Shown here piece by piece: positions 16,573 to 17,907 of a stretch of DNA of 17,907 bases; positions within the stretch are counted from its first letter, which is position 1, and every line of letters starts with the position of its first letter. The DNA is from a virus. Lineage: Duplodnaviria; Heunggongvirae; Uroviricota; Caudoviricetes. The position numbers and the translations under genes are program-made. The DNA lies in IMG/VR virus record IMGVR_UViG_2675903650_000016. One strand, 5' to 3'. Below the pieces are notes generated by a model, which searched no databases, was not told the origin of the DNA, and was given only the letters and a program-made list of their open reading frames with translations.

Positions 16573-16905
16573 TCAGGGTGCAGAAGGACTAAAGATAAAC
16601 GTTTTCTTCACGCCTTTACACGGCCTGTCCTTCTCAAATCGCCATTTTGCCATCGCCTTTACAACCTGCTCATCAAACAAATGGTGCGGCTCTGAACGGA
16701 TAAACTCAATTCGGGTGACAGTACCATCAGCACCAATATCAAACTTCACATCAACCCGTCCCTTTATATAATTTGCCGCTGCATAGGCCGGATATTGTGG
16801 TAATGCCTTAACCAACTGTCGGGGCATATCTGTTTTATGTTGCGTACAGCCCATAACCAGAGAAGACAACAAAATAATTAACGGAAGATTTCTTTTCATT
16901 TTCAT
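16573..16905 (-). CDS. lipoprotein with TonB C-terminal domain
   Basis: About 110 aa. Signal peptide with a lipobox-like LVMGC, then PQYPAYAAANYIKGRVDVKFDIGADGTVTRIEFIRSEPHHLFDEQVVKAMAKWRFE. This aligns closely with the E. coli TonB C-terminal domain as I remember it ([56 protein letters not shown]). Start is ATG at 16905 or 16899; the ORF track begins at a GTG at 16914. Confidence 0.7.
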   Translation of the reverse strand: MKMKRNLPLIILLSSLVMGCTQHKTDMPRQLVKALPQYPAYAAANYIKGRVDVKFDIGADGTVTRIEFIRSEPHHLFDEQVVKAMAKWRFEKDRPCKGVKKTFIFSPSAP

Positions 16906-16919
16906 TCCCGGCACAGATA

Positions 16920-16936
16920 AGAATAAGTCTTATTCT
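16920..16936. promoter_or_regulatory. 17 bp perfect palindrome upstream of the lipoprotein gene
   Basis: AGAATAAG-T-CTTATTCT lies 15 nt upstream of the lipoprotein ATG and overlaps a possible -10 element (TAGAAT). It could be an operator or a 5-prime UTR hairpin. A perfect palindrome of this size has a small but non-negligible chance of occurring randomly in 18 kb. Confidence 0.3.
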
Positions 16937-17243
16937 AACAATGCCACCCTGTCGGTCATCAATCCTCTGTTTAATGGCAACGACAATTATCCGACTTAAA
17001 TCACAAATCAGACACATGACATAACAGAGCTTGCGAGGTAACACATCGTCCGGTTTCTTCCACCATCGCACCGGACCAGCGACCATGAGGGGACAACGCC
17101 GCGCTCCGTTAACGCGGTAAACCCCGGTGTGTATCGTTTTTGATTATCCCCGCACACTCGCGCAGAGGAGTCTCCCGGTCGGGCTGCGGTCTCTGTTAAT
17201 GCAGGAATACGGCGACAATACCGCGCATGGATAATAAGGTCGC

Positions 17244-17468
17244 TCAACACACTGGCTGTAATGCAGCGGATACCATGTGGCATTTAGCGGCATTCATCGT
17301 ACACTCCACGGTTAGCTCTTCATTCGTGGCATTCACCTGAAAGGTCCGGGAGTGTAATTGCGTACATTTACCACTGAACGAACCTTCAACAAGAACACGA
17401 CCACGCTGCAAAATACGGAACGGAATTGTTCCCTGAAAAGGTTCTACGGTTACCCGTAATTTCTTCAT
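17244..17468 (-). CDS. hypothetical small protein translationally coupled to Rz
   Basis: 74 aa ORF. Its ATG overlaps the Rz stop (ATGA) and is preceded by a strong GGAGGA. No family recognised. The C-terminal part overlaps other weak ORFs, so its true length is uncertain. Confidence 0.45.
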
Positions 17469-17907
17469 GTATCCTCCGGATAATAAAAAGCCAGCTTAGT
17501 GCACTGAGTGCGGATATATTCCTGCGCCCCTTCCAGCTGCTTCTGCATTGTCATCAACCGTTCTCTGAGGATGAAATAATCCCGTTCAGCGGTGTCTGCC
17601 AGTCGGGGGCCGGTTGCATTATCCACGCCGGAGGTGCCGGTGGCTTCACGCACGGTACCGGGGCAGGTGGCGTTGACCCGCAGGCGCTTACGACCAGCGG
17701 CAACGTCAGCGCGCAGAGTTTCATTTTCAGCTCTCGCATCGGCTAATTCCCTTGAGTATCTGGCATCAAGCGCAGCAACATCACGCTGGCGCTGCTGCAT
17801 GTCAGTAATGGTTGCGTTTGCCAGCTCCAGCTCACTGGCTTTTTTATCGCGCTGCGCTTTGTAGGTGATGGCGTTATCACGGTAATGGTCTGTTGCCAGC
17901 CACAGCG
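17465..17907 (-). CDS. Rz: spanin inner-membrane subunit Rz (partial, 5-prime end beyond window)
   Basis: The reading frame runs open to the window edge. The translation [69 protein letters not shown]...[31 protein letters not shown] is collinear with lambda Rz as I remember it. Confidence 0.85.
17554..17739 (-). CDS. Rz1: spanin outer-membrane lipoprotein subunit Rz1 (embedded in Rz)
   Basis: 61 aa ORF in the +1 frame inside Rz: [61 protein letters not shown]. Lipobox VVSAC and a proline-rich mature region are collinear with lambda Rz1 as recalled (...[32 protein letters not shown]). Confidence 0.8.

Follow-up and report, generated by a model that had tools for sequence, protein, structure and literature searches.

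The window, by which we mean the whole stretch of 17,907 nucleotides analysed here, carries on its minus strand a coding sequence for a TonB-domain lipoprotein of 108 residues (16573..16899, with the stop codon at 16573-16575), which was recognised by an open reading frame call together with profile matches. RefSeq lists the product under the name ‘TonB family protein’ (WP_000828068.1) with the start at ATG 16899, and two other start options lie upstream of it, ATG 16905 and GTG 16914. A Shine-Dalgarno-like GGGA can be read from the sequence at 16906..16909 on the same strand, 6 nt 5' of ATG 16899. The span 16573-16936 to which an earlier note on this DNA had drawn attention turns out to be exactly this gene plus a palindrome in front of it. 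A scan of the window against Rfam gave no structured-RNA family at its gathering score.

The gene lies on the late-operon strand, with the Rz/Rz1 genes (17465-17800) on one side and the HNH/TerS/TerL genes (15834-13321) on the other. The i-spanin Rz is encoded by the C-terminal part of its open reading frame (17465..17800, minus strand; phrog_13, 4.6e-51), and the o-spanin Rz1 is embedded in it (17554-17739, minus strand; phrog_3198, 3.8e-27). Between Rz and the segment that holds the TonB-domain gene is a reading frame for 74 amino acids (17244..17468, minus strand), the start of which overlaps the Rz stop; it matches positions 100-172 of the 291 in phrog_2571, and a Pfam search with it gave no match. 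Downstream there is a gene of the YlcI/YnfO family (DUF3950) on the plus strand (16181..16441, with a RefSeq start at about 16241), followed on the minus strand by the HNH endonuclease (15834-16199), the small terminase (14979-15542) and the large terminase (13321-14982).

The TonB-domain gene, its promoter and its 3' flank together make up a cassette of 653 bp (16396..17048), which has a GC content of 0.42-0.45 versus 0.52-0.58 for the phage genes around it. An unrelated segment of 465 bp takes the place of the cassette in phage PPyecE_EH1910, and the flanks are 88-96% identical. The earlier proposal that the gene occupies a moron site is thus borne out, since a low-GC cassette is missing from an otherwise near-identical phage backbone, and by these sequence comparisons the prophage gene is a moron. 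A conserved stretch of 170 nt upstream (17049-17230) was considered as a further part of the cassette and set aside, as it belongs to the phage backbone and is present in the gene-less phages too. The equivalent site between Rz/Rz1 and terminase is used in phage 21, Perceval, the Stx1a phages and one Klebsiella phage; the same genome position recurs in three phage groups, at identities down to 40%. The TonB-domain gene comes directly after bor/iss in phage 21, Perceval and E. coli ATCC 11775.

It is worth pointing out that the product begins as a lipoprotein should, with a cysteine that follows a basic n-region and a hydrophobic h-region. The signal peptide comprises residues 1-17 (MKRNLPLIILLSSLVMG; 16849..16899, minus strand) and agrees with the PROSITE-type lipobox rule. 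The lipobox is LVMGC (16846-16860, minus strand), the N-terminus predicted to be acylated is Cys18 (16846-16848), and the residue at +2 is Thr. The earlier note had called attention to the lipobox and to the non-Asp residue after the cysteine, and both hold well beyond this one protein: the rule is passed by 27/30 family members, none of these 27 has Asp at +2, and Cys18 is invariant across the 19 family members that were compared. From these features we infer lipidation of the prophage protein and its sorting to the outer membrane. The cysteine is followed by a short tether, TQHKTDM (residues 19-25; 16825..16845, minus strand), with low pLDDT in the AF2 model. Throughout the family 16-25 residues separate the cysteine from the YP motif, which reads as a distance of 7-15 residues from the cysteine to the start of the domain.

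Nearly all of the rest of the protein, residues 26-104 (16588..16824, minus strand), is a TonB C-terminal domain. The match to the Pfam model TonB_C (PF03544) scored 54.8 bits, with a cut-off of 24.6 and an E-value of 1.3e-14, and that to TIGR01352 scored 54.5 bits with a cut-off of 27.1. A phmmer search against the PDB placed residues 26-104 onto residues 153-231 of E. coli TonB with no gaps (E 6e-16), so that the residue-for-residue alignment claimed before stands, as does the description of the mature protein as a short linker followed by a TonB C-terminal domain. The protein has 31/85 residues identical to E. coli TonB, and the identity lies at 36-39%. In the AF2 model the domain has a pLDDT of 80-92 and the topology alpha-beta-beta-alpha-beta, with helices at residues 38-42 and 76-84, strands at 47-55 and 61-70, and the edge strand beta3 at 94-103. 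The top Foldseek matches were 2GSK_B, 1U07 and 2GRX_C (TM 0.83-0.89, rmsd 1.3-1.9 Å), and the best superposition of the model is with TonB in its complexes with BtuB (2GSK_B) and FhuA (2GRX_C). The equivalents of the TonB YP motif, F202, W213, R214, E216 and G186 are retained, and so is the beta3 edge strand with its alternating hydrophobic residues. The equivalents of TonB R158, Q160 and R166 are K, L and Y in the prophage protein; over the family the first two are variable, and the third is an invariant Tyr. The family also has invariant residues of its own, namely Y39, S69, L74 and F88.

What the protein lacks is the remainder of TonB. The TonB equivalog models (NCBIfam PRK10819 equivalogs) gave 49-74 bits against cut-offs of 265-448, and matched only at about model positions 152-240. 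The TonB-type N-terminal anchor in the cytoplasmic membrane is absent, its place being taken by the cleavable lipoprotein signal, and there is no proline-rich spacer to span the periplasm, only the seven residues between Cys18 and the domain.

Such a short protein could be taken for a decaying, functionless fragment of a captured tonB, as in old annotations that speak of ‘partial tonB-like’ or ‘TonB fragment’, and many copies are indeed frameshifted or truncated (for instance P0012, with 130 member sequences, as well as P0010, P0013, P0018 and P0057). We consider this explanation highly improbable. Because the dN/dS value between the gene and its phage-21 allele is 0.12, at a dS of about 1.4 between the intact alleles, we regard the gene as real and under purifying selection. 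About 30% of E. coli genomes contain intact copies, and length and architecture are kept across six genera. The lipoprotein signal, judged by its conservation, was acquired and is shared throughout the family; it is not what a truncation would leave behind.

The location of the gene, directly after the lysis cassette and on the late-operon strand, brings up another possibility, that of an accessory of the envelope or of lysis, in which the TonB-like domain would bind peptidoglycan or another envelope component and thereby lend stability to the envelope or adjust lysis. TonB's C-terminal domain has been proposed to bind peptidoglycan, and phrog_1267 bears the label ‘Rz-like spanin’. That label does not suit the protein, which is globular and ends in KKTFIFSPSAP, a stretch that is not hydrophobic, so that the C-terminal membrane segment needed by a unimolecular spanin is absent. 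A complete Rz/Rz1 pair is encoded by the phage itself, matching other PHROGs as given above, and BLASTP shows no similarity of the TonB-domain protein to either member of the pair in the window. Moreover, near-identical backbones without the gene still lyse, the chromosomal homologues are found outside any lysis context, and transcription in the lysogen, described below for an allele of 72% identity, is not limited to the late phase. A role in lysis, which had been left possible before, therefore appears distinctly unlikely.

The palindrome in front of the gene is a perfect one of the 8-1-8 type, AGAATAAG-T-CTTATTCT, at 16920..16936, as verified by a script. It is the sole palindrome with 8-nt arms in 16300-17600; for this 1.3 kb the probability of one or more such palindromes is 0.077, and for the promoter region of 61 nt, which was picked post hoc, it is 0.0023. 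A sigma-70 promoter-like site with an extended -10, ATGACC-16-TGtTAGAAT, is placed by consensus match only at 16932..16959 on the minus strand, and its TTGTnAGAATAAGAC stretch occurs also in the phage-21 allele. The earlier suggestion of a palindrome at the promoter agrees with this arrangement, in which the palindrome sits on the promoter-like site and overlaps both the -10 hexamer and the predicted transcription start; given this overlap it may be described as operator-like. It was rejected as a conserved operator, since its right arm is not kept in the phage-21 allele.

The 19-mer at 16916-16934, which overlaps the palindrome and is placed at position -35, matches the Fur-box consensus at 13/19 positions, a score that was reached by 17/500 shuffled sequences, and the same scan of the phage-21 allele gave no match. 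Most of the chromosomal homologues have better matches, of 14-17/19, situated 22-36 nt ahead of the start codon; those concerned are from Raoultella, Klebsiella, two lineages of Pantoea, Sodalis and Erwinia typographi. In the shuffle controls for these homologues, 0-1/500 sequences equalled the matches of at least 15/19, and up to 7/500 equalled those of 14/19. As predicted sites, these Fur-box matches link the family of TonB-domain lipoproteins to TonB and iron physiology. The only experimental datum we found for the family comes from the transcriptome of LF82 lysogens, in which an allele of 72% identity, PERCE_65, reached log2 values of 5.0-6.6 versus 2.3-4.3 for the flanking late genes; it is transcribed independently of these genes and above the prophage background, at a modest level. 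The phage-21 allele showed no induction in macrophages.

Fur-repressed genes as a rule promote iron acquisition. On this basis the protein could be regarded as a helper, an accessory of TonB-dependent uptake or signalling that is induced by iron starvation, the phage copy of which would improve the iron acquisition of the lysogen; it might keep TonB boxes extended and ready for scarce TonB, or it might modulate one transporter. Besides the boxes in front of the chromosomal genes, the presence of sitABCD on the Perceval prophage speaks for such a role. It is difficult to see how an outer-membrane lipoprotein without an energy source would provide it, and the gene neighbourhoods of the chromosomal homologues revealed no conserved transporter neighbour. 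The phage-21 allele has neither a Fur-box match nor a response in macrophages, and periplasmic TonB fragments, the sole relevant experimental precedent, were inhibitory according to the secondary account cited below. Taken together, we find a helper unlikely, though less so than an accessory of lysis.

The gene is by no means obscure, as it is annotated already in phage 21, CP-933N, Perceval and JLK-2012 and occurs in 1616/5426 complete E. coli genomes (about 30%), K-12 being without it. Nor, on sequence similarity, is the family specific to phages: beyond E. coli, no fewer than five enterobacterial genera (Klebsiella, Raoultella, Pantoea, Erwinia and Sodalis) encode homologous lipoproteins of 33-50% identity on their chromosomes. 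A full-text literature search yielded no functional study of any family member, a search of the BFVD viral structures returned nothing at E <= 0.001, and the PADLOC match (E 0.022) was at chance level, so a known defence system was discarded as a candidate. The statement that no characterised phage protein of this type was known is therefore in line with what the literature, PADLOC and BFVD contain.

The function we favour, and hold tentatively as a reasonable possibility, is that of an uncoupled TonB domain at the outer membrane, which competes at the TonB boxes of transporters or colicins, or else traps TonB, and in this way brings about exclusion. The predicted lipid anchor and the tether of seven residues would hold a complete TonB C-terminal domain in place at the outer membrane. 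Since the protein has neither the membrane anchor of TonB nor its proline-rich spacer, it could not be energised via ExbB/ExbD, and would be a rival of TonB where TonB-dependent transporters face the periplasm. The free beta3 edge strand of the protein may pair with the TonB boxes of these transporters, or with those of group B colicins on their way in; another possibility is that it pairs with TonB's own C-terminal domain and so traps TonB. By either route TonB-dependent import would be damped, and the lysogen would be partly shielded from T1, phi80 and TonB-dependent colicins and microcins. We infer that the protein would bind TonB boxes or TonB itself, and that some phenotype of exclusion would follow. 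The invariant cysteine, the +2 position that is never Asp and the tether that is always short would set the domain at the docking height of TonB. In favour of this scheme we also count the moron-like behaviour of the cassette, the purifying selection, the recurrence and the frequency of the gene, and the tie of the family to TonB and iron physiology. There are two precedents for it. In the account of Howard et al. (2001) that is given in PMC9841981, an overexpressed periplasmic TonB domain inhibits iron import by TonB-dependent transporters. The T5 protein Llp, a lipoprotein of the inner leaflet of the outer membrane, sits on the periplasmic face of the FhuA plug, which is the face that TonB occupies too (bioRxiv 10.64898/2026.03.26.714494).

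Several observations do not sit easily with an uncoupled decoy of this kind. TonB residues to which specific contacts have been attributed, R158, Q160 and R166, are unconserved, which would count against it, and the family-specific invariants Y39, S69, L74 and F88 could point to a different partner. The modest expression in LF82 counts against it as well. Predicted control by Fur argues in part against a pure inhibitor of iron uptake: the Fur-boxed homologues would be induced on iron starvation, just when inhibition of TonB-dependent uptake is costly, and a helper or a shield would therefore fit better than a brake. A broader form of the proposal, which is possible but which we regard as rather doubtful, is that of a natural, Fur-controlled TonB-domain shield or brake of enterobacteria, tethered to the outer membrane where TonB-dependent transporters open to the periplasm and captured as a moron by lambdoid phages, in parallel with a lipoprotein that carries domain III of TolA, the two representing a general, receptor-independent exclusion by mimicry of the energy transducers.

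TonB-dependent transporters admit iron and vitamin B12, and also phages such as T1 and phi80, group B colicins, microcins and siderophore-antibiotic conjugates. If the uncoupled-domain proposal is true, about 30% of complete E. coli genomes would carry a damper of TonB-dependent entry, which in ATCC 11775, for example, is a neighbour of iss, with effects on phage host range, on bacteriocin competition in the gut and on the iron physiology of lysogens. The susceptibility to Trojan-horse antibiotics may be altered, and the protein would offer a natural reagent for studies of TonB-transporter docking. If the broader shield or brake holds, around a third of E. coli strains would be less permeable to TonB- or Tol-dependent phages, colicins and microcins. 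The Fur-boxed chromosomal relatives, for their part, suggest an unrecognised part of the enterobacterial iron-starvation response.

Among known systems, the nearest in structure is the C-terminal domain of E. coli TonB (1U07 and 1XX3, and 2GSK and 2GRX in complex with BtuB and FhuA, respectively), with which the prophage protein has its fold in common. Of the aromatic core residues, Y163, F202, W213 and F230 are kept and Y215 is replaced by F, and beta3, the strand that pairs with TonB boxes, is kept as well. The two differ at the N-terminus, where TonB has its anchor and proline-rich spacer and the prophage protein has a lipobox and a predicted anchor in the other membrane. The periplasmic TonB fragments of Howard, Herrmann, Stratilo and Braun (2001, J Bacteriol 183:5885), as they are described in the secondary account, resemble the prophage protein in having the TonB C-terminal region without the energising anchor; those fragments are artificial, soluble and overexpressed, whereas the prophage protein is natural, predicted to be lipid-anchored and provided with a putative promoter of its own.

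The same design is seen in a lipoprotein of lambdoid prophages that consists of domain III of TolA (WP_000271631.1, ‘cell envelope integrity protein TolA’; Pfam TolA, 5.7e-23), that is, the C-terminal domain of the other energy transducer that spans the periplasm. Its lipobox reads LTTG|C, also with Thr at +2. It occurs in 897/5426 E. coli genomes and shares a prophage with the TonB-domain gene in strain SCU-104. It differs in the domain that it carries and in the location of its gene, which is upstream of the lysis cassette and lies outside the window; as an obligate partner it was rejected, being absent from 15/15 phage records with the TonB-domain gene. Lambda Bor/Iss is likewise a moron lipoprotein, encoded in the interval from the spanins to cos/terminase and expressed in the lysogen, as is the 72% allele of the TonB-domain gene. 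Bor is unrelated in sequence and serves in serum resistance, and its gene runs on the opposite strand.

In mode of action the closest parallel would be with Llp of T5 and Cor of phi80, N15 and HK022, which are small phage lipoproteins of the inner leaflet of the outer membrane, as is predicted for the TonB-domain protein, and whose target, a TonB-dependent transporter, is approached from the periplasm. Their fold is unrelated; the best 50 Foldseek matches in the PDB were TonB and TolA domains plus unrelated proteins, with no Llp among them. The cor gene is found by the tail genes, in contrast to the spanin-terminase interval used here. The action of Llp and Cor is restricted to FhuA; a TonB domain, in principle, could be directed at any TonB box.

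The TonB-domain gene (16573-16899, minus strand) encodes a 108-aa protein that reads MKRNLPLIILLSSLVMG and then CTQHKTDM-PRQL...FIFSPSAP, with cleavage before the Cys. Its ATG at 16899 is the RefSeq start and is preceded by GGGA at 6 nt; ATG 16905 and GTG 16914 are alternative in-frame starts. The N-terminus satisfies a PROSITE-type lipoprotein rule, with a basic n-region, a hydrophobic core, the lipobox LVMGC ending in Cys18, and Thr at +2. Residues 26-104 form a TonB C-terminal domain: they align without a gap to residues 153-231 of E. coli TonB in a phmmer search of PDB sequences (E 6e-16; identity to E. coli TonB 31/85), and the protein matches Pfam TonB_C (E 1.3e-14, 54.8 bits, cut-off 24.6) and TIGR01352 (54.5, cut-off 27.1). 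The enterobacterial TonB equivalog models were matched only at model positions ~152-240, with scores far under their cut-offs. In the AF2 model the domain has a pLDDT of 80-92 and the order helix, strand, strand, helix, strand; Foldseek superposes it on three TonB structures with TM 0.83-0.89 and rmsd 1.3-1.9 Å: those bound to BtuB (2GSK_B) and FhuA (2GRX_C), and a fragment of 92 residues (1U07). By both score threshold and fold, the protein belongs to the TonB_C domain family. The earlier note had described a short linker followed by a residue-for-residue TonB C-domain and had proposed the profile search and the structural comparison as checks; the description proved accurate, both checks agree with it, and the observation as a whole is confirmed.

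Profile searches brought in relatives of 104-133 aa from Klebsiella, Raoultella, Salmonella, Pantoea, Erwinia, Sodalis and Pseudescherichia. All 19 members that were aligned have the lipobox Cys; the lipoprotein rule holds for 27 of 30, and in these 27 the +2 residue is never Asp, which bears out the non-Asp residue noticed earlier in the window's protein. The Cys is separated from a YP motif by 16-25 residues (27 members), which we read as 7-15 residues from the Cys to the start of the domain. One relative, P0129 (107 aa), has a signal peptide without the lipobox Cys and would be a soluble periplasmic single-domain version. The invariant residues of the family are mostly those of TonB: P161, P164, A167, G174, D181, G186, V188, P198, F202, A209, W213, R214 and E216. 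The equivalent of R166 is an invariant Tyr, and those of R158 and Q160 are variable. At the Q160 position the 108-aa protein has Leu (residue 33, codon 16801-16803). The substitution Q160L in TonB is known as a classical suppressor of mutations in the TonB box (PMC2533080); since family members have L, Y, Q, P, R or K at this position, we draw no conclusion from the Leu. Outside the family, the top-scoring matches are to large proteins in which the TonB_C domain is repeated 3-6 times in tandem (P0058, P0061, P0066 and others), P0058 having five copies in 513 aa.

Members at 33-50% identity are chromosomal genes, not prophage genes. In Raoultella and Klebsiella the homologue follows a glycine-zipper lipoprotein gene and has lacI-lacZ as a neighbour; that of Pantoea lies among metabolic genes, that of one Salmonella Choleraesuis genome adjoins a yegR-family gene, and another, on a sequencing-run contig, sits by a cellulose-synthesis cluster. 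These non-lysis contexts bear on the role in lysis that the earlier note had left standing. The window gene is on the late-operon strand, between Rz/Rz1 (phrog_13, phrog_3198) and the HNH, TerS and TerL genes, but with this separate spanin pair present, and without any similarity of the protein to it, a spanin identity was rejected. A broader envelope or lysis role is weakened by the same facts and is kept as an improbable alternative. The PHROG family phrog_1267 is essentially this lipoprotein family (full-length match, 5.7e-43), yet it is labelled 'Rz-like spanin'. Its sequence gives no support to the label, which looks like an annotation error and will spread through the pipelines that use PHROG.

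In the phages, homologues in the same interval fall into three groups: JLK-2012, Lys8385Vzw and Stx1a phages (99-100% identity); phage 21, Perceval, ev017 and PhiR phages (72%), where the gene directly follows bor; and Klebsiella phage ST13-OXA48phi12.4 (40%). In a distant-mode search, 1616 of the 5426 complete E. coli genomes carried the gene, 414 as the window allele and ~1200 as the phage-21 type; ATCC 11775, the type strain, has it after iss. The window gene is surrounded by a cassette (16396-17048) with a GC content of 0.42-0.45, against 0.52-0.58 in the adjoining genes, and in phage PPyecE_EH1910 the cassette is swapped for 465 unrelated bp between flanks 88-96% identical. The gene thus behaves as a moron, as had been proposed for this lysis-to-terminase interval. 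The replacing segment (L040, the PPyecE_EH1910 locus, 2036-2500) is AT-rich and carries no annotated gene, and the swap suggests an exchangeable cargo slot between a 74-aa ORF and ynfO. This ORF (17244-17468, minus strand), whose start overlaps the Rz stop, has no Pfam domain and matches only positions 100-172 of the 291-position phrog_2571; it may be the remnant of a longer gene. The non-coding stretch 5' of the cassette (17049-17230, minus strand) has no Rfam match. It is 96% identical in PPyecE_EH1910, which is without the TonB-domain gene; many Stx1 and Stx2 phages share a segment of 52-53 nt with it at 98-100% identity, and phage 21 shares parts at 86-89%. These comparisons make it a conserved element of the phage backbone.

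Comparison with the phage-21 allele, which is 72% identical in amino acids and 73% in nucleotides, gives a dN/dS of 0.12 overall and 0.10 in the domain, with dS ~1.4 and synonymous sites near saturation. The TonB-domain gene is genuine and under constraint. In many copies of the phage-21 type a frameshift or truncation at the C-terminus removes strand beta3 (P0010, P0012, P0013, P0018, P0019, P0021, P0057; one such cluster holds 130 member sequences), which indicates recurrent decay in cryptic prophages. Although such copies are frequent, purifying selection and a gained, conserved lipoprotein signal exclude a dead fragment, which we regard as highly improbable. In LF82 lysogens the 72% allele of the Perceval prophage, PERCE_65, has a log2 expression of 5.0-6.6 in every condition, compared with 2.3-3.7 for Rz and 2.3-4.3 for the small terminase (supplement), with no significant change in macrophages; these data concern an allele other than that of the window. 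The gene is named 'TonB family protein' by PGAP in every entry among the matches listed; older names include 'partial tonB-like membrane protein encoded within prophage CP-933N' and, in phage 21, 'TonB C-terminal domain protein'. Our literature search found no functional study of it, and the available passages of a 2024 superinfection-exclusion review include Cor and nothing like this lipoprotein. It is annotated and widespread and, as far as could be found, functionally uncharacterised.

The palindrome that the earlier note saw at the promoter is perfect, AGAATAAG-N-CTTATTCT (16920-16936), and its start falls within the -10 hexamer of a site that resembles a promoter (ATGACC-16 nt-TGtTAGAAT; 16959-16932, minus strand), a position expected of an operator. 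No other palindrome with arms of 8 nt occurs in 16300-17600. One or more would arise by chance with a probability of 0.077 in this interval, or of 0.0023 in the 61 nt upstream of the ATG, a region chosen post hoc. The window and the phage-21 allele have TTGTnAGAATAAGAC in common; the right arm is not shared.

Fur in E. coli has the 19-bp consensus GATAATGATAATCATTATC. Matches to it were counted in the 300 nt before each start codon, a crude count and not a calibrated matrix. In all six entries from Raoultella, Klebsiella, Pantoea, Sodalis and Erwinia typographi the best site is found 22-36 nt upstream of the ATG: 15/19 in several Raoultella genomes, 15/19 in Klebsiella with a perfect core (TGATAAT-T-ATTATCA), 14/19 in Pantoea SM3 and P. 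formicae, 16-17/19 in P. agglomerans and an uncultured Pantoea, 17/19 in Sodalis sp. RH21, and 16/19 in E. typographi after its mis-called start codon was corrected. Across these loci the matches are at L011 6970-6990, L003 5970-5990, L007 6037-6055, L028 ~3960-3980, L030 ~1605-1625 and L016/L025 ~2970 and 3970. For sites of at least 15/19, 0-1 of 300-500 shuffles reached the observed score; 14/19 was reached by 1/300 (P. formicae) and 7/500 (Pantoea SM3). The Salmonella, Pseudescherichia, phage-21 and Klebsiella-phage copies have no site of such strength within 300 nt of the start. In the window a 13/19 match (16916-16934) occupies the same position, almost coinciding with the palindrome; 17/500 shuffles reach its score, and it is only suggestive. 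We infer from the sites that Fur binds at the chromosomal homologues' promoters, which predicts a family induced by iron starvation.

The protein has all of TonB's transporter-docking features and none of its energising features. A very short tether is predicted to hold it to the outer membrane's inner leaflet. The simplest mechanism would be competition with TonB, in which the free edge strand pairs with TonB boxes, either those of transporters or those of group B colicins on their way in; alternatively, the protein might pair with TonB's own C-domain. Either would give a phenotype of partial TonB deficiency. Competition has two precedents in its favour: an overexpressed periplasmic TonB domain inhibits iron import by TonB-dependent transporters (Howard et al. 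2001, as cited in PMC9841981), and Llp of T5, a lipoprotein likewise of the inner leaflet, binds FhuA on the periplasmic face of its plug, a face also occupied by TonB (bioRxiv 10.64898/2026.03.26.714494). The main argument against it comes from the Fur boxes, since a gene induced by iron starvation more naturally helps iron uptake. Such a helper, switched on by starvation, is in our view unlikely, and a protective function also fits the Fur boxes, colicin and phage receptors being de-repressed at exactly that time. We put forward the decoy mechanism tentatively, at somewhat less than even chances; the TonB mimic of the earlier note is a plausible and structurally well-motivated hypothesis.

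E. coli SCU-104 offers a parallel case within the same prophage. On the upstream side of its lysis genes (L001, a locus of this prophage outside the window, 15294-15722, minus strand) lies a gene, called 'TolA' by PGAP, for a 142-aa lipoprotein with the lipobox LTTG|C, Thr at +2 and TolA domain III in its C-terminal 90 residues (Pfam TolA 5.7e-23). It is carried by phage mEp460_ev081 and by 897 of the 5426 complete E. coli genomes; none of the phage records compared has both genes. The design is that of the TonB-domain lipoprotein, with the other energy transducer copied. Two independent lipoprotein copies of both periplasmic transducers' docking domains in lambdoid prophages fit a mimicry strategy, as circumstantial evidence. 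Beyond the tail genes of this prophage, beside ompW/trp (L039 14600-20618), the genes for a YadA-C-terminal-domain adhesin and an S6-family (SPATE-type) autotransporter peptidase are further prophage cargo.

Compared with known systems, the 108-aa protein is not a TonB, because the anchor and spacer are absent; nor is it a spanin, and it does not have the Llp/Cor fold. Its nearest functional analogues are Llp and Cor, together with artificial TonB fragments. The TonB-domain lipoprotein joins known phage outer-membrane lipoprotein morons and TonB_C proteins.
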